Of a DNA stretch of 64,000 nt, positions 2,622 to 54,765 are shown in pieces. Below the pieces are notes generated by a model. The model did no database searches and was not told where the DNA came from. It saw nothing but the letters and a program-made list of their open reading frames with translations. The first letter of the stretch is position 1; each line of letters begins with the position of its first letter. The stretch is taken from positions 32,001 through 96,000 of the IMG/VR virus record IMGVR_UViG_3300028832_000004. One strand, written 5' to 3'. The position numbers and the translations under genes are program-made. The DNA is from a virus. Its lineage: Duplodnaviria > Caudoviricetes.

Positions 2622-3012
2622 ATTTTTACTCCTTGGTGTGTGTCCGATTAACCGGCACTCTTTTTCATATTCATGGGCGGATTCTCCGGTCGATAGATTA
2701 CCCGAAAATTAGGATTCGGCGCTCGCCTAAGTTCTTCAGGAATTTCATCATCAATCCAACGATGATTTTTACCAGTCCAGTACCAATAACCGTCATCGTT
2801 GTCGCGATAAAGCATTGGATTCTCGGTGAAAGTATGGAATCGCGGAGAATAAAGCGGCTCGTCCATAGCGACATAGCAGTGATGTTCATTCGCATAAGCC
2901 TGAAGCCATTTGACCAGGTCTTCAGCCGGTGCCCGCGGGCACCGGCTGCGGCTTTTTACGCAAAGGCTTAGAAAGAAATCCAAAGAACTTCATTTTGGTT
3001 ACCTCCGGTTGA

Positions 3013-3303
3013 TTATCCTTCAATAAATGGGGTAGCGCTGACGGAAAACTCGCCGATAAATTTGTCCCACCACGCGTCATTCCTGATCAGGAGCTTGGCA
3101 TTGGATATGTTGCATGTTTTTGCCAAGGCATTGCGGAACGCGGCTGCACCTTTGAGGATCAAGAAGTTTTTGAAGTCCTTGCCGTGGTCCATTCGCATGC
3201 GTTTAATAATGGCGTCTTTATTCGTAAAAGCCAGCCCTACATATCGGCACTCCGAATGAATGCAGAAAAAGACATTTTCCTTATTTTTGTTATTGACCTT
3301 CAT
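3013..3303 (-). CDS. Hypothetical early protein
   Basis: GAGG RBS; directly downstream of promoter copy 2. Confidence 0.6.
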   Translation of the reverse strand: MKVNNKNKENVFFCIHSECRYVGLAFTNKDAIIKRMRMDHGKDFKNFLILKGAAAFRNALAKTCNISNAKLLIRNDAWWDKFIGEFSVSATPFIEG

Positions 3304-3334
3304 GGTTGAAACCTCATTGGTTAATCACTTACAT

Positions 3335-3514
3335 TATAAATATACTTCCTCTTTTTGAAAAAGACACCCTATTTTTGAAAAAAATGGGGTGATTTTAGGT
3401 GAACAGCGCAGATTTAAAAAGCGGGAAATTTTCACAAAACGGGTGTCTTTTTCAAATAATGAAGTTATATTATAGACATAACGGCGCAGGTAGCGCCGAA
3501 TCAAGGAAAGAACT
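3335..3514. promoter_or_regulatory. Divergent pair of early promoters, copies 2 (-) and 3 (+)
   Basis: GTGTCTTTTTCA at 3356-3367 (-) and 3443-3454 (+), each N11-TATATT; + copy has hairpin GGCGC-AGGTA-GCGCC and RBS. Confidence 0.85.
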
Positions 3515-3916
3515 ATGGCTACGCTTTATGAAAAAGAATTCACGGCACAGGTCGCCCGCTTGATCGCGGCCGGATATACTATCGCGGTCCACCCTATGTG
3601 CGGCCATCAAGGCGAAATCGCCAAGGTCTGTTTCGAAAAGGATGGCAAGTATTACGCACTGTATTTGACCAACGAGTATAACCATGACATACCATCTCCG
3701 GAAAATCCCGGAGATGAAGTCCGCATAATTTTTGGATACGCTCCCGGGGATTACGGGGAGCCGTATTCTACAATGTGGCTGAAAAACGTATCTGAAATTG
3801 AACGCCGCACCTTTTACATCATCGGCGGCTATAACAAAAAGAACGCGTTTATCACGGAAGATAAAGACGCGGCTTGGAAGGCAGCGCAAGAACACGAGGT
3901 AGCGGCATGCCGGTAA
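3515..3916 (+). CDS. Hypothetical early protein
   Basis: AAGGAAAG RBS after the promoter cassette. Confidence 0.7.
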   Translation: MATLYEKEFTAQVARLIAAGYTIAVHPMCGHQGEIAKVCFEKDGKYYALYLTNEYNHDIPSPENPGDEVRIIFGYAPGDYGEPYSTMWLKNVSEIERRTFYIIGGYNKKNAFITEDKDAAWKAAQEHEVAACR

Positions 3917-4437
3917 AAACACTAGCGATGCGTAGGCTCAACGGCCAAAAACGCTCATTCTACTGCGATGATGGGTGCCATCACCGTAACATCGACTTCT
4001 ACCCCGCAGAGCTCGTCGAAAAGATTATTACAGATCTCGCCAACGAAGTGCTGGACGGCCGCAAGGCGTTGAATTCCGCCTTCGATCATTATCGTGCCAA
4101 GCGCAAGGAACTGCGGGACGAGCGCCACGCCGCCATCGCCGAACTCCACGCGCTTCAAAACAAAATGTGCGAGGATGTGTTCGAAGGCGTTTCGCCGCGC
4201 CATATCCAGTGCCCGCCTTTGAGATACGCCGCCTTCATCACCAACAAGACGCGCCGGAACTATTACCTTGCCCTGGCGCGTGCCGCCGAAACCGGTCGCC
4301 TCTTTTGGGCAAAAGAAGGCATCTTTGCTTTGCGCGAAGGACGCAAGAAAGATTCGGAAAAGGCTTACAAGCTGGAACTGCGCCGTAGCCGTCAGGTTCG
4401 CGTATTCACTGCGAAGGCTATGGAGGTTAAAATCTAA
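3874..4437 (+). CDS. Hypothetical protein (true start probably about 3907)
   Basis: Long ORF coupled to its neighbours; GAGG before the ATG at 3907. Confidence 0.6.
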   Translation: MEGSARTRGSGMPVKTLAMRRLNGQKRSFYCDDGCHHRNIDFYPAELVEKIITDLANEVLDGRKALNSAFDHYRAKRKELRDERHAAIAELHALQNKMCEDVFEGVSPRHIQCPPLRYAAFITNKTRRNYYLALARAAETGRLFWAKEGIFALREGRKKDSEKAYKLELRRSRQVRVFTAKAMEVKI

Positions 4438-5865: not shown

Positions 5866-6693
5866 CTAGACGACCCAATATGTAAAACGCGCCCCGCGTG
5901 GCGTATAAACCGCCTCCTTCGCAACAACCAAGCGCTTGTCGTCCGTCAATGCGGAAACCACCATGCTTCCAACCGGAATGTCCTGCCCGTCCGTCGTAAA
6001 TGTCTGCTTCTTGGACCATAGCGCCGCAAGATCATTGTAATTCTTCACAAGGCTCGCCATGACGCCCGCGGCATGCGTTATAGGGCGGCCGCCTTCAAGC
6101 ACCACATTCGGGGTTTCCTTGCCGCCATATAAGGTGGCGTTAGGCTCCGATAATGTGTATCCTACCGAAAGGGGGCGGCTGTACGTTCCTTGGAATCCAG
6201 CCAATACGTCAACCGGCTTCTGCTTATAAAGGCGACTCAGGAACGTAATCTTCTTGTTTTTAAAATCGACAAACGCGGGGGAACTTCCCATATTCGCCAA
6301 TGCCAAAACCATATCCGCGTCGGAGTGGCTCATATTCAAGATGGACATTTCAGCGGATAGCATTTCCGGCCCATCTATTTCAAACCCATAGTTGGCAATA
6401 ATATCCGAAATGGGAGTGTCCCTAAAGCTGACCGGATGCGCCTCGTCAAATACGGGGCATGCGGAATCCACGGCGCCTGCGTTGTAAAGCAAGGCGCCTG
6501 TCCCGTCTACCGACACATCCATGCCGGAGAGGGTTCCTTCATATTCCTTATCGCCTACGGTGAGCATCACCTTTTCCAGCCCGGTATAACTATCGACCTT
6601 GCAGGTGAACCGATAAAATGGATACTCCGACAAGGCTTCACGGATAATGATGTGTTCAGGCGGCTCCGATGCAACCGAAATGTTTATGTTCAT
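5866..6693 (-). CDS. Putative baseplate hub protein
   Basis: Position after tape-measure and tube-initiator genes; beta-rich sequence; inference from synteny. Confidence 0.45.
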   Translation of the reverse strand: MNINISVASEPPEHIIIREALSEYPFYRFTCKVDSYTGLEKVMLTVGDKEYEGTLSGMDVSVDGTGALLYNAGAVDSACPVFDEAHPVSFRDTPISDIIANYGFEIDGPEMLSAEMSILNMSHSDADMVLALANMGSSPAFVDFKNKKITFLSRLYKQKPVDVLAGFQGTYSRPLSVGYTLSEPNATLYGGKETPNVVLEGGRPITHAAGVMASLVKNYNDLAALWSKKQTFTTDGQDIPVGSMVVSALTDDKRLVVAKEAVYTPRGARFTYWVV

Positions 6694-14144: not shown

Positions 14145-15278
14145 TTACTTCGCCTTGATCGTTTGGCTGGAGATGATTGCACTCACGCCGGGGCTAGCAC
14201 GATGCGATCCAGTCATGCCACGATGCAAATTGTCCAAAAGCGACTCAAATGCGTCCGGGGAAGTTTCCTTCGCCGGATTCTGCTTCGGGGCGGGCGTGCC
14301 AAGCGCTTCAATCACGGCGCGTGCCTTGCGTGCACCGAAACGGAGAGTCATCAAGGCTTCAGCCTTATCGTTCCCGTAGGCATCTCGAACAGAGGCAACA
14401 GCCTGCGCAAACTTTTCATCGGACATTGCAAGGGCAAGGCCGTCTGCGCTCTTCATGAATGAAAGGCGGCGGGCCATATTGGCATCCGGAACAGCGTTTT
14501 CAATATCGTCTGCCCAAGAATCAACATCCTTCGGTTCCGGCGTATCAGCGTCATCAAGAACGCCAACCACTGCCTTATCGATAAATTCGAGCAATTCTTC
14601 CACGCCAAAAATTTCGGACGGGAGAACCACCACCACGCAGTCGCCATCATTGCAAGTTTCAATACCGGAGCCGTAATAGTCATCGCCTTCCGGAATGGCC
14701 TCGCACATTTTAGAAAGGGTGTTGCCCTTGGCGCCGCTGACACGGATGAGGCGATCTTCGCGCTTGATGGTGCAGCCTGTGCCGGTAAGCGCCGTCATTG
14801 CCTGTTCAATGCGTTCATCGATTAAGTCTTCGGCCTTGCGGAAATTCGATCCGGTGGTCTTGTTTAGGTTGGATACATACTTATCGGGGTCATCCACCTC
14901 GACAGCCTTTCCGTCCTTATTGACCATGTATTTCTTGCCATCCTTTTCGATGGAAGCCACGGCATTCTTGCCATCCGTATAAACAGATTCGTTTTTCGGC
15001 GCGTCTTCCATGGTCTTTGCGGCGGTAAAATCAATGGTGAATGCATAAGATTCATCTGCCCTGGAGGTGGACGATACCTTTACGCCGCAACCAATGGCTT
15101 CTTCCAAGCGGGCGCAAATGCCCATTGCATCGCGGGCACTGGTGGCATGTTCCGTTACGGACACACGACCGTGTACGTAATCTTGCTCATACAGCCAATT
15201 TTCGGGGTTTTGGGTGTGTCTGCCAAATACGGCGGAAATGCCTTCGCAAATTTTTTGACTTAATATATTACGGGTCAT
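14145..15278 (-). CDS. Hypothetical virion or head protein
   Basis: GGAG RBS; lies in the head module. Confidence 0.55.
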   Translation of the reverse strand: MTRNILSQKICEGISAVFGRHTQNPENWLYEQDYVHGRVSVTEHATSARDAMGICARLEEAIGCGVKVSSTSRADESYAFTIDFTAAKTMEDAPKNESVYTDGKNAVASIEKDGKKYMVNKDGKAVEVDDPDKYVSNLNKTTGSNFRKAEDLIDERIEQAMTALTGTGCTIKREDRLIRVSGAKGNTLSKMCEAIPEGDDYYGSGIETCNDGDCVVVVLPSEIFGVEELLEFIDKAVVGVLDDADTPEPKDVDSWADDIENAVPDANMARRLSFMKSADGLALAMSDEKFAQAVASVRDAYGNDKAEALMTLRFGARKARAVIEALGTPAPKQNPAKETSPDAFESLLDNLHRGMTGSHRASPGVSAIISSQTIKAK

Positions 15279-15309
15279 GGTGAACTCCTAATGTCTATTG
15301 GAAATATAA

Positions 15310-15345
15310 GAAAAAAACCCCAAGGAGAACACCTCGGGGTTTTTG
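15310..15345 (-). terminator. Rho-independent terminator
   Basis: AACCCCGAGG/CCTTGGGGTT stem followed by a T8 run on the minus strand. Confidence 0.8.
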
Positions 15346-15357
15346 TAAAAATGAGGC

Positions 15358-35553: not shown

Positions 35554-35627
35554 AACGCGTTACCGGACTCGAACCAGTGGCTTACCGGGTGTATCCGCCC
35601 GAGCTCTACCAACTGAGCTAAACGTGT
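35554..35627 (-). ncRNA. Aberrant tRNA with 8-nt anticodon loop CGGATACA
   Basis: TAGCTCAGTTGGTAGAGC D-arm and GGTTCGAGTCC T-loop; loop does not fit a 7-nt anticodon. Confidence 0.7.
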
Positions 35628-35967: not shown

Positions 35968-36043
35968 ATACTATTCCTTAAAATAAATCGTTTGCGCGTG
36001 ATGCCCAAGCCTAAGATGAGGCATCACGCCTTCTTTTATGTAG

Positions 36044-36116
36044 GGGCAGGAGCCGGACTCGGACCGGCAACCTAGGAATTAGTATATTCCCTGCTCTACC
36101 ATTGAGCTATCCCGCC
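36044..36116 (-). ncRNA. Aberrant tRNA with 8-nt anticodon loop TATACTAA
   Basis: Acceptor GGCGGGA/TCCTGCC; D-arm GCTC-AATGGTA-GAGC; T-loop GGTCCGAGT. Confidence 0.7.
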
Positions 36117-43068: not shown

Positions 43069-43197
43069 ATGAAAATCTTCCGCTGCGGCAAATGCCATAA
43101 ACATTTCCTCGCCGAATACGAGGTGAATAAATGGACGATCGGATGGTGTCCGGAATGCAAGGCCATCCGCCGAATTTACTTCGAGCGCGAGGATTAA
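43069..43197 (+). CDS. 42-aa zinc-ribbon protein (below the ORF-track cutoff)
   Basis: MKIFRCGKC...WCPECK. Confidence 0.55.
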   Translation: MKIFRCGKCHKHFLAEYEVNKWTIGWCPECKAIRRIYFERED

Positions 43198-43247
43198 CGT
43201 GCCATTGTGAATTGATGTTCGTATATTATTCAACAAAGGAAAATCAC

Positions 43248-43331
43248 ATGAAGCAGTATTACGCAAATAATTTCAATTTTGAAGCAGCGGCCAGTTCCGA
43301 GGCTTCGATCTTGCATATACCGCAGCGGTGA
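43248..43331 (+). CDS. Leader peptide of the tRNA operon (MKQYYANNFNFEAAASSEASILHIPQR)
   Basis: TTCGTATATT box at 43218-43227; AAAGGA RBS; double stop TGA-TAA. Confidence 0.7.
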   Translation: MKQYYANNFNFEAAASSEASILHIPQR

Positions 43332-43356
43332 TAAACTCCAAAAGAAGTGTAAATGG

Positions 43357-43390
43357 AATCCGCTGCATAAACAGCGGATTTTTTATTTAT
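43357..43390 (+). terminator. Attenuator-type terminator directly before the first tRNA
   Basis: AATCCGCTG/CAGCGGATT stem followed by TTTTATTT. Confidence 0.8.
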
Positions 43391-43392
43391 AT

Positions 43393-43464
43393 GGCGCCAT
43401 AGGCAAGCGGTTACGCCTCCGGAATTTCACTCCGGCAACTGCGGTTCGACTCCGCATGGCGCTA
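43393..43464 (+). tRNA. tRNA-Glu(UUC)
   Basis: Anticodon arm CCGGA-ATTTCAC-TCCGG; T-loop GGTTCGACTCC. Confidence 0.85.
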
Positions 43465-43475
43465 CTAATTATTAC

Positions 43476-43560
43476 GGGCAGTTATGCAAGCGGCTTTAAA
43501 GCACGGTGACTGTAAATCATCTCCCTAACGGGTTCGGGGGTTCGAATCCCTCACGGCCCA
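43476..43560 (+). tRNA. tRNA-Tyr(GUA)
   Basis: GGTGA-CTGTAAA-TCATC; long variable arm; GGTTCGAATCC. Confidence 0.9.
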
Positions 43561-43566
43561 TTATAT

Positions 43567-43639
43567 TGGATTGTAGCTCAATTGGTAGAGCGCTTGGCCG
43601 TTAACCAAGATGTTGCAGGTTCGAGTCCTGCCTTTCCAG
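43567..43639 (+). tRNA. tRNA-Asn(GUU)
   Basis: CTTGG-CCGTTAA-CCAAG; canonical D and T arms; C33. Confidence 0.85.
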
Positions 43640-43645
43640 CTAAAC

Positions 43646-43727
43646 GGAAGCGTCCCACAACTGGTGGTGGAGCGGTCTTGAAAACCGCCGGCCATAAGGT
43701 TTGGGGGTTCGAATCCCTCCGCTTCCG
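43646..43727 (+). tRNA. tRNA-Ser(UGA)
   Basis: GCGGT-CTTGAAA-ACCGC; long variable arm. Confidence 0.9.
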
Positions 43728-43731
43728 CTAT

Positions 43732-43818
43732 AGAGGCGTGGGTGAGTGGTCTAAACCGCCTCCCTGCTAAGGAGGTACTCTGAGATACGAGTCGCTGGTC
43801 CGAATCCAGCCGCCTCTA
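43732..43818 (+). tRNA. tRNA-Ser(GCU)
   Basis: CCTCC-CTGCTAA-GGAGG; long variable arm; T-loop GGTCCGAAT. Confidence 0.85.
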
Positions 43819-43962
43819 CGAATTTGCCTAATCTGTTTCAACTTGCCGATCGGCCCTTTCGTATATTTAGATGTACCTGATCCTATCAAGCCCCGGACGC
43901 CTCTTCCATTGCATCCGGGGCTTTCGTGTAGAATGGCGCAAAACAAAGGTATATTTTCAGGT

Positions 43963-44481
43963 ATGGCACATAGTTATAATGTAATCACCAAGCACGCGGA
44001 TTTTAAGGAGTATATCGCGCTCAAACACCTAGTCCAAATACAGGGCTATGTTACGGACGTTTATCTCCCGATAAAAGGTGAGTATGATCCTAAAACGCGT
44101 ACCGGATCCATCTACAACTCGAAGGACCATGAATATCGATATGCCGACAATCCGGACTTCCAAGCCCGCGTAGCATACACAGACCCGCAGACGGATATGT
44201 TCGATCGGGGGCGCGTAATGGAAGTGAACTACACAAATATCGCATATACGCTCAAGCGCCTGCCTCCGGATATCCCTCCCGCAGGCCCCGGGCAATATCG
44301 GCCCAAATATGCGGATAAATACTGCCCCGGCGATATTGTCCAGTTCTCAAAGCTATACGTGCATTACGGATCTATGGACCTTAGCTACTTCGTGCGCCAA
44401 ATCACAGTTATCCGCAACCCCAACGCCAAGAGCGTGGATGACGAGGCACTGATCCGTCTTGAACTGGTAATCCACATCTAA
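43963..44481 (+). CDS. Possible head-closure or neck protein (gp14-like)
   Basis: VQIQGYVTDVYLP..SIY pattern; weak similarity judged by eye. Confidence 0.4.
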   Translation: MAHSYNVITKHADFKEYIALKHLVQIQGYVTDVYLPIKGEYDPKTRTGSIYNSKDHEYRYADNPDFQARVAYTDPQTDMFDRGRVMEVNYTNIAYTLKRLPPDIPPAGPGQYRPKYADKYCPGDIVQFSKLYVHYGSMDLSYFVRQITVIRNPNAKSVDDEALIRLELVIHI

Positions 44482-54665: not shown

Positions 54666-54688
54666 GTATTTAATGCACAAGTGCATAG

Positions 54689-54765
54689 TGGCAGTTTTGG
54701 GAATCGAACCCATCATCGTACTAGCTTTCGAAAGCTAGGTGCTCTCCCGACTGAGCTATACTGCC
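54689..54765 (-). ncRNA. Aberrant tRNA (Arg-UCG-like) with palindromic anticodon arm
   Basis: D-arm GCTC-AGTCGGGA-GAGC; CTAGC-TTTCGAAA-GCTAG; GGGTTCGATTCCC. Confidence 0.7.

Follow-up and report, generated by a model that had tools for sequence, protein, structure and literature searches.

A putative multivalent leader-peptide attenuator in front of a phage tRNA operon

The 64,000-nucleotide stretch of phage DNA analysed here (the window) comprises bases 32001-96000 of a 127,987-bp single-contig genome (IMG/VR record IMGVR_UViG_3300028832_000004; 50% G+C) and contains, in this order, a promoter, a short leader open reading frame (ORF), an intrinsic terminator and five transfer RNA (tRNA) genes. 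This unit is, on the sequence data, probably a ribosome-mediated, multivalent transcription attenuator of the trp/his type that controls the phage tRNA operon. The case is carried by the leader ORF, by three alternative RNA helices with their conservation and covariation, and by the match between leader codons and tRNAs, all of which can be followed through related phages; from these we infer that the leader is translated, in which direction the switch works and what would trigger it.

The unit and its relatives

Among the genes of the phage are those for a tail sheath, a major-head-like protein, a prohead protease and QueD. A blastn search of isolated phages in INPHARED gave matches confined to the tRNAs and no close isolate. 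Relatives, designated here by L and a number, were taken from sequence collections (IMG/VR, JGI, ENA, Logan and one metagenome-assembled genome from GTDB, a Clostridia bin from buffalo caecum), by way of homologues of a neighbouring 172-amino-acid protein, DNA patterns based on the leader sequence, and a search of complete viral records for tRNAs. Several of the ENA samples, to judge by their names, may belong to rumen studies.

Fifteen distinct variants of the promoter-Shine-Dalgarno-leader-terminator-tRNA unit were found, in phages of two genome-size classes. Eleven come from phages of about 130 kb whose neighbouring protein is 69-95% identical, and four from phages of 185-215 kb in which this protein is 41-48% identical; in the large phages the unit lies tens of kb away from the 172-amino-acid gene, yet directly 5' of the main tRNA array. 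The unit stands upstream of that gene in the window and in L001, and inverted and downstream of it in L005, L020, L031, L032 and L037. The order of promoter, Shine-Dalgarno sequence, leader, spacer, terminator and first tRNA is constant in all fifteen. The first tRNA itself varies, being tRNA-Phe or one of two unrelated tRNA-Glu genes, and the leader is retained with the array despite changes of the upstream gene and of the first tRNA.

In L022, whose neighbouring protein is 95% identical, the entire module is absent (region 2550-2900, compared with window 43069-43850). There, the gene for a zinc-ribbon protein, which in the window directly precedes the leader promoter, is cut after about 19 nucleotides (nt), and a 93-amino-acid gene with its own promoter replaces the leader and the five tRNAs. 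The module therefore behaves as a replaceable cassette. In L077 and L078 the leader is lost along with most of the array. Where these phages carry a lone tRNA gene at another place, it is preceded by a plain promoter without a leader, and a covariance model built from the fifteen variants detects one such element per large phage record.

Match of leader codons and tRNA genes

The features of the window that bear on the codon-tRNA match are as follows; the tRNA genes were called by both ARAGORN and Rfam.

43248..43331, + strand: leader ORF, 27 codons plus TGA (ATG 43248-43250, TGA 43329-43331)
43257..43307, + strand: regulatory codons 4-20 (Tyr 2, Ala 5, Asn 3, Phe 2, Glu 2, Ser 3)
43393-43465, + strand: tRNA-Glu(UUC)
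43476-43560, + strand: tRNA-Tyr(GUA)
43567-43640, + strand: tRNA-Asn(GUU)
43646-43728, + strand: tRNA-Ser(UGA)
43732-43819, + strand: tRNA-Ser(GCU)

All five tRNAs exceed the Rfam tRNA threshold, and their order (Glu, Tyr, Asn, Ser(UGA), Ser(GCU)) is that given in a preliminary description of the window made from its letters alone. The leader peptide reads MKQYYANNFNFEAAASSEASILHIPQR. That description had counted ten of its 27 codons as cognate to the phage's own tRNAs, and the same count was obtained here (Tyr 2, Asn 3, Glu 2, Ser 3). The window array is without the Ala and Phe tRNAs found in relatives, in which the fullest arrays run Phe-Glu-Ala-Asn-Tyr, with or without Ser.

At codons 4-22, fourteen leaders have 267 residues in all, of which 260 belong to the six amino acids of the tRNAs in this family (Phe, Glu, Ala, Asn, Tyr and Ser); the background is 34%. 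The accompanying array has a cognate tRNA for 19 of 19 of these positions in L031, L040 and L041, and for 18 of 19 in L034 and L037, with a binomial P for the codon-array match as low as 6e-9. Taken by itself, the window shows a modest match, 10 of 19 (P=0.03), with 17 of 19 drawn from the family set; the strength of the case comes from the family comparison, in which the window copy is a reduced form of the unit. No enrichment of the six amino acids was seen in structural proteins that might serve as a rationale for the tRNA set.

The leaders also differ from one another as their arrays do. The array of L043 consists of a weak tRNA-Phe-like gene followed by Lys(UUU), Ala, Asn and Gly(GCC), with no Tyr or Glu tRNA. 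Its leader (MLKTNANKNFFRATASFVGGSANIQRW) has no Tyr or Glu codon, of which other leaders have 2-5 and 2-3, respectively, and it has gained AAG, AAA, GGC and GGT, which are the codons read by its Lys(UUU) and Gly(GCC) anticodons. Regulatory-zone Ser codons of the TCN type are confined to the window and L001, the sole arrays with tRNA-Ser(UGA). Every array with a detected tRNA-Ser(GCU) goes with AGT, a rare codon in the phage (8% of Ser), at codon 16; all arrays without a Ser tRNA go with AAT or TAT there, except that of L043, where AGT is kept and no Ser tRNA was found. It had been suggested that leader codon content might track tRNA content in related phages, and on these three counts it does, with exceptions that are taken up below.

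Alternative RNA helices

Four further elements of the window define the putative switch.

43355..43389, + strand: intrinsic terminator (5' arm 43355-43365, loop CATAAA 43366-43371, 3' arm 43372-43382, T-run to 43389)
43236..43250, + strand: region 1 (Shine-Dalgarno sequence AAGGAAAA, spacer and AUG), which pairs with region 2 in the absence of a ribosome
43322..43340, + strand: region 2 (GCAGCGG of the last codons, TGA stop, and UCCA 43337-43340), serving as 5' strand in the antiterminator and as 3' strand in helix 1:2
43354..43366, + strand: region 3 (UGGA 43354-43357 and CCGCUGC 43360-43366), both the terminator 5' arm and the antiterminator partner of region 2

A terminator scan confirmed that an intrinsic terminator lies between the leader ORF and the first tRNA. 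In the window its stem has 11 pairs (43355-43382, -14.2 kcal/mol), and its T-run ends 3 nt before tRNA-Glu. Terminators are present in all fifteen variants at -14 to -24 kcal/mol and 2-20 nt before the first tRNA; they fall into at least eight sequence types and contain seven covarying pairs.

The complementarity on which the preliminary description had built its antiterminator, between GCAGCGG at 43322-43328 and CCGCTGC at 43360-43366, is present as it stated. The duplex of leader 3' end and terminator 5' arm has -14.8 kcal/mol in the window, against -6.1 +/- 2.2 for shuffled sequences (0 of 1000 as good), and by this test the antiterminator of the window is the most significant of all variants. 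A second copy of GCAGCGG, at 43284-43290, is likewise present. It is not conserved in the nearest relative, L001; it therefore probably plays no part in the switch and was dropped as a second antiterminator strand.

The pairing was followed in a MAFFT alignment of eleven variants (columns 125-136 with 179-190). A single register accounts for it, in which the last leader codons and the stop pair with the terminator 5' arm; 79.7% of cells are paired, and both sides have changed in 6 of 12 pairs (15 cells), a result equalled by 0 of 500 shuffles. Registers slid by 1-3 columns are 31-58% paired. Four later variants, outside this alignment, also fit the pairing when inspected by eye. The pairings of individual variants are as follows.

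Window: GCAGCGG with CCGCUGC
L030: GCAGUGG with CCACUGC
L025: UGUGCGG with CCGCACA
L031: AUGCGGUG with CACCGCAU
L005: CGGUGUUG with CGGCACCG
L037: GGCGUUG with CGGCGCC
L034: nine pairs
L040: 11 pairs with one bulge (worked out by eye)
L043: CCAGCGG with CCGCUGG (worked out by eye)

The prediction that antiterminator pairing would persist through replacement of the terminator, by compensatory changes, thus held in the relatives. Cognate duplexes also beat 82-100% of 109 terminator-like control arms from the same genome.

The antiterminator is bipartite. Its outer part consists of the last codons and the stop paired with the distal 5' arm, and its inner helix of a conserved UUUCC(A) after the stop paired with a conserved UGGRA at the base of the arm (85% paired). 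The full hairpin has about -15 to -25 kcal/mol.

Region 2 has a further partner. In helix 1:2 the Shine-Dalgarno/AUG region pairs with the stop codon and UUUCC, at 97% paired over eleven variants with one covarying pair, and RNAalifold agrees. In the window GGA (43238-43240) pairs with UCC (43337-43339) and AUCAC (43243-43247) with GUGAU (43328-43332). The helix covaries in L037, L043, L030 and L034, as in UCAC with GUGA versus CAACA with UGUUG; L037 has an extra CCCC with GGGG, and L043 has CUCUA with UAGAG alongside its TAG stop. Two partners thus compete for UUUCC: the Shine-Dalgarno sequence proper, and a sequence resembling it at the terminator base. In the modelled structures, helix 1:2 would act as an anti-antiterminator. 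An Rfam search of 43100-43950 at E<=1 placed only tRNAs above threshold, and found no leader or T-box family.

Proposed mechanism

Constrained folds were read for the window, L001, L005, L025, L020 and L037-L043. Helix 1:2 and the terminator are what the folds give when no ribosome is placed. Placing one at codon 5, 12 or 20 on a transcript cut short of the terminator 3' arm gives helix 2:3 in every variant read. When the ribosome occupies the stop codon, it covers region 2, and region 3 remains free. The spacing of the window is in keeping with this: the stop codon (43329-43331) abuts the GCAGCGG part of region 2 (43322-43328), and the last regulatory codon (43305-43307) lies 15 nt upstream of it. 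A ribosome of the usual footprint size at that codon would leave region 2 uncovered. The geometry proposed beforehand, with the antiterminator masked by a ribosome at the stop codon and freed by one stalled upstream, agrees with these footprint-masked folds.

The switch may be envisaged as follows. The promoter (-10 TATATT) would start a transcript with an 84-nt leader ORF and a good Shine-Dalgarno sequence, and any transcript bound for the tRNA genes would have to traverse the terminator 3 nt 5' of the first tRNA. When the leader is read fast, the ribosome would be on the stop codon, or gone so that helix 1:2 closes; either way region 2 would be unavailable, the terminator would form and no tRNA would be made. 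A ribosome dwelling at codons 4-22 would cover region 1 and free region 2, and helix 2:3 would form before the terminator 3' arm is transcribed. Slow decoding of the listed codons should thus let RNA polymerase pass into the tRNA array. The new tRNAs would speed the decoding of the leader and turn the operon off again, giving a closed feedback loop on tRNA supply. The slowing could come from a phage codon demand that the supply of host tRNAs does not match, from loss of host tRNAs once the host is shut off, or from tRNA-targeting defences that cleave them.

Several observations weigh against this reading. First, the fifteen variants stem from few lineages, and the counts given above are not independent. 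Second, in most variants the full-length transcript favours the terminator over the antiterminator thermodynamically, and the switch must therefore be kinetic, as the choice is in known attenuators; if host RNA polymerase outruns ribosomes, a pause would be required. Third, the window has a weak helix 1:2, of -7.7 kcal/mol, where its relatives reach -14 to -20. Fourth, the outer antiterminator helix reaches a shuffle P of only 0.04-0.12 in five variants taken individually, and leaders paired with non-cognate terminators do not come out clearly worse in energy than the cognate pairs. The matrix of cognate and non-cognate duplexes, tried as a test of covariation, was not diagonal-dominant since GC-rich arms share motifs, and column-wise covariation was relied on instead.

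The remaining objections concern codons. Five Ala and two Phe codons of the window have no cognate phage tRNA, which follows from the lack of the Ala and Phe tRNAs that relatives possess. The leader of L032 has five Phe codons and its array no tRNA-Phe; L020 and L042 are without tRNAs for some leader codons, and have an extra ORF or a long gap there; L043 keeps about six non-cognate codons. Such unmatched codons would reflect recent tRNA loss which the leader has not yet followed.

Mismatches of this kind, in several variants, are also what would be expected from a more general switch of translation capacity or timing, in which any slowing of the ribosome (through global shut-off of translation, a shortage of ribosomes or the state of early infection), or a phage or host factor binding the leader RNA, opens the terminator and codon bias is secondary. 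The three-helix architecture senses ribosome position whatever the cause of the delay, and the promoter motif shared with structural genes (protease, sheath-proximal) fits a temporal programme. Such a switch, however, has no need for a restricted leader (260/267 residues; 19/19 in three variants), nor for a codon set that changes with the array, including the rare AGT and the GGC/GGT that match anticodon GCC. It is therefore considered improbable.

Constraint on the leader reading frame

The ribosome-binding site claimed ahead of the leader is the Shine-Dalgarno sequence AAGGAAAA (43236-43243, + strand). The presence and the 27-codon length of the ORF were also as described, and only its coordinates had been given one base off. 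The ORF has 27 codons in 14 of the 15 variants, with one extra in-frame codon in L040. In the alignment, the AGG of the Shine-Dalgarno sequence, the ATG and the stop column are invariant in all fifteen, the stop being TGA in fourteen and TAG in L043. The spacer and terminator show many indels and substitutions among variants, and the prediction that frame, start and stop would be kept while the flanks diverge was borne out in the relatives. Between L005 and L025, for example, there are four synonymous and no non-synonymous codon differences, yet 37 of 60 bases differ after the stop. A suspected frameshift between clades near the 3' end of the ORF was discarded, since the alignment requires no gap there.

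Across the family, the variable leader sites are spread over the three codon positions as 13/15/14, with no third-position bias, and residues interchange within the small set F, E, A, N, Y and S. From this even spread it follows that the amino-acid set is conserved, and not the sequence or order of the peptide.

A gene for a small protein with a functional peptide, followed by a hairpin that is an ordinary leaky terminator and by tRNAs expressed through unregulated read-through, would also show a conserved ORF length and a good Shine-Dalgarno sequence. The purely synonymous differences between L005 and L025 would suit it as well, and promoter-hairpin-gene layouts occur elsewhere in the phage (e.g. 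43858-43918). Against this stand the 13/15/14 spread and the free swaps within F, E, A, N, Y and S, which are unlike a folded or binding peptide, and the five C-terminal residues, which vary in step with the RNA pairing. It would also leave unexplained why the composition equals the downstream tRNA set and shifts with it in L043, and why the leader 3' end and the terminator have undergone compensatory changes. A small-protein gene is considered an even less probable explanation than a general switch, and attenuation by decoding of the leader codons is preferred to both.

Promoter

43199..43227, + strand: promoter (weak -35-like GTGCCA at 43199-43204, 17-nt spacer, -10 TATATT; 9/12 match)

The -10 box lies inside a phage motif, TTCGTATATT (43218-43227), and transcription is predicted to start at about 43234. 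The motif, which had been put forward as a promoter box, is present at that position and enriched. The 64-kb window has seven exact copies, against about 0.1 expected from sequence length, and 17 copies with at most one mismatch, against 4.9 in shuffles, none of 100 of which reaches 17. The copies are on the same strand as the genes that they precede, usually 25-40 nt 5' of a Shine-Dalgarno sequence and start codon, and these genes include structural ones, e.g. protease and sheath-proximal genes. TATATT is invariant across the fifteen variants, and L030, L034, L040, L041 and L042 have a perfect TTGACA-17-TATATT at the equivalent position.

That the tRNA array has a separate promoter, with the leader and terminator belonging to the transcription unit of the upstream zinc-ribbon gene, is very improbable: AT-rich, -10-like strings do overlap the T-run (window TATTTATAT, 43384-43392; L043 TTCGTATATG), but no box is conserved across variants, a start 7 nt past such a box would fall inside the tRNA since only 2-20 nt separate T-run and first tRNA, and the leader has its own conserved promoter and stays with the array through changes of upstream gene and first tRNA.

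A likely distant member and rejected candidates

L003, a 135-kb viral contig with 29 tRNA genes from a phage that looks unrelated, has a 30-nt stretch of tRNA-Ser(UGA) in common with the window. At about 6455-6150 on its minus strand, a sigma-70-like promoter is followed by a 37-codon ORF ending in UGAUUUCC, and then by UGGGAA and a strong terminator, before the array. UGAUUUCC and UGGGAA are the same two motifs as in the fifteen-variant family, a helix of the 1:2 type closes the 37-codon ORF in the fold, and the covariance model gives this site an E of about 0.002, its best match in that record. The 37-codon leader contains all 20 amino acids, for which the simulated probability is 0.0034. 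Judged by these features, L003 is likely to be a distant member of the attenuator family and agrees with the rule that leader codons track tRNAs. Relatives of its first tRNA-like gene (L082, L083) have no leader. As a single instance for which no relatives were found, L003 is counted as a lead only.

Pattern searches with GCAAATAA...TTTCCAAGTGC for further members returned known members and chance matches only. One of the candidates, L035, a match in a genome contig, was rejected as a chance match. A covariance-model match at window 15252-15348 (E about 7e-4) is probably spurious; it overlaps a bidirectional terminator and the start of a minus-strand gene (14145-15278).

Comparison with known systems

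Leader attenuators of enterobacteria may respond to several amino acids, as those of thr (Thr, Ile) and of ilvGMEDA and ilvBN (Ile, Val, Leu), and further examples are trp, his, leu and pheA. As in the thr, ilv, trp and his attenuators, the phage unit has a short leader ORF rich in regulatory codons, an intrinsic terminator 5' of the regulated genes, an antiterminator that overlaps the terminator 5' arm, an upstream 1:2 partner that keeps the antiterminator from forming, and a stop codon at which the terminating ribosome masks region 2. Like the multivalent thr and ilv attenuators, it would sense several amino acids together. All of the computationally testable defining features of leader-peptide attenuators are thus found in the phage unit. 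Unlike the attenuators of amino-acid operons, it is phage-encoded, has no sequence similarity to Rfam leader families, uses the Shine-Dalgarno/AUG region and not coding sequence as region 1, and stands before tRNAs and not biosynthetic enzymes, so that its product would act directly on the sensor.

The nearest case of attenuation governing the translation apparatus is the E. coli pheST attenuator (pheM leader), which controls a synthetase through decoding of cognate codons. Both are leader-peptide attenuators of a translation-apparatus component; pheST is a host gene, and concerns a synthetase and a single amino acid, whereas the phage unit would control tRNA genes and sense 4-6 amino acids. 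T-box riboswitches work without the ribosome: a specifier codon and the T-box bulge make direct contact with uncharged tRNA. They, too, couple the state of specific tRNAs to a choice between terminator and antiterminator before translation-related genes. In contrast, the sensing part of the phage unit is a translated ORF, and Rfam gave no T-box match.

Why phages carry particular tRNAs has been debated for decades, with codon compensation and evasion of tRNA-cleaving defences among the proposals, and the regulation of phage tRNA genes is, to our knowledge, largely unexplored. T5 tRNA-Tyr is reported to act against a retron effector (PMC11555353) and a phage tRNA-Lys against PARIS (PMC11464382), and anticodon-loop variants of phage tRNAs have been reported as well (PMC10264068). 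The present array resembles such counter-defence tRNAs in that it consists of a few tRNAs (Tyr, Asn, Glu, Ser) that could replace those of the host; these reports appear to concern tRNA function, and no paper found in the searches deals with control of tRNA-gene transcription by a leader peptide. No description of leader-peptide attenuation of tRNA genes, phage or otherwise, was found in the full texts searched, which include few subscription journals, so that an older one, among the work of the 1980s on the T4 and T5 tRNA regions, is possible; one match to the search, PMC8860593, proved to be unrelated. The unit would combine a classical mechanism with a new class of regulated gene, the tRNAs, and with a direct feedback logic.

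If the reading is correct, the phage measures the decoding of exactly the listed codons and adjusts its tRNA supply by feedback, and classical attenuation extends to RNA genes. Tentatively, the unit may be an inducible counter-defence, in which the tRNAs stay silent until anticodon nucleases or similar effectors, or phage-induced host shut-off, deplete their host counterparts; the leader repertoire would then co-evolve with the tRNA repertoire across unrelated phages with 4 to 29 tRNAs, the latter in L003. For annotation, the codon list of the leader would predict which tRNAs are important to a phage, including ones that its array has lost. With a length of about 150 nt and a modular build, the attenuator might also be of use for sensing whether specific tRNAs are available.

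Interrupted arrays and neighbouring elements

Some arrays are interrupted. L020 has a 227-amino-acid ORF inside the tRNA array (2684-3367, minus strand) with no Pfam family above threshold, L043 has a 1.2-kb stretch (about 790-2025) apparently with an ORF on the opposite strand, and the arrays of L034, L040 and L042 have gaps. These ORFs and gaps occupy the positions of tRNA-Ala and/or tRNA-Asn in relatives, and may be mobile insertions. In T4 a homing endonuclease, segB, is reported within a tRNA cluster (PMC2330249). The first gene past the terminator of L043 (533-605) is tRNA-Phe-like, with anticodon GAA; it scores 27.5 bits, below the Rfam tRNA cut-off, and received no ARAGORN call. In the window, ARAGORN also reports three tRNA-like genes on the minus strand (35554-35627, 36043-36116 and 54688-54765) with abnormal anticodon loops, of four bases (gata, tcga) and of two (ac).

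Comparison of the neighbouring proteins with PHROGs and Pfam gave no informative family. The zinc-ribbon protein directly 5' of the leader promoter (43069-43197; 42 amino acids, CxxC...CxxC) is kept with the module in L001, and has sub-threshold matches only, to a PHROG 'translational regulator' (E 8e-4) and to Pfam Zn_ribbon_8.

Directly 3' of the tRNA array, at 43858-43918, a second TTCGTATATT promoter precedes a GC-rich hairpin (GCCCCGGA...TCCGGGGC plus TTTCGTG) and then a gene at 43963-44481. The promoter-hairpin-gene layout is kept in L022 (2898-2955) and L005 (2893-2960), with a different hairpin sequence and no intervening ORF, and the hairpin may be another control or stability element of a 5' untranslated region.

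An Rfam search at E<=0.1 of a structured-looking region upstream of the L037 leader returned no family. Just 5' of the leader promoter, L005 (about 4150-4350), L020 (about 3800-4000) and L037 (about 6080-6270), all on the minus strand, share a conserved stretch of about 190 nt. In these L005-type phages, it has its own CGTATATA-type promoter and a terminator, with no convincing ORF, and may be a non-coding RNA.

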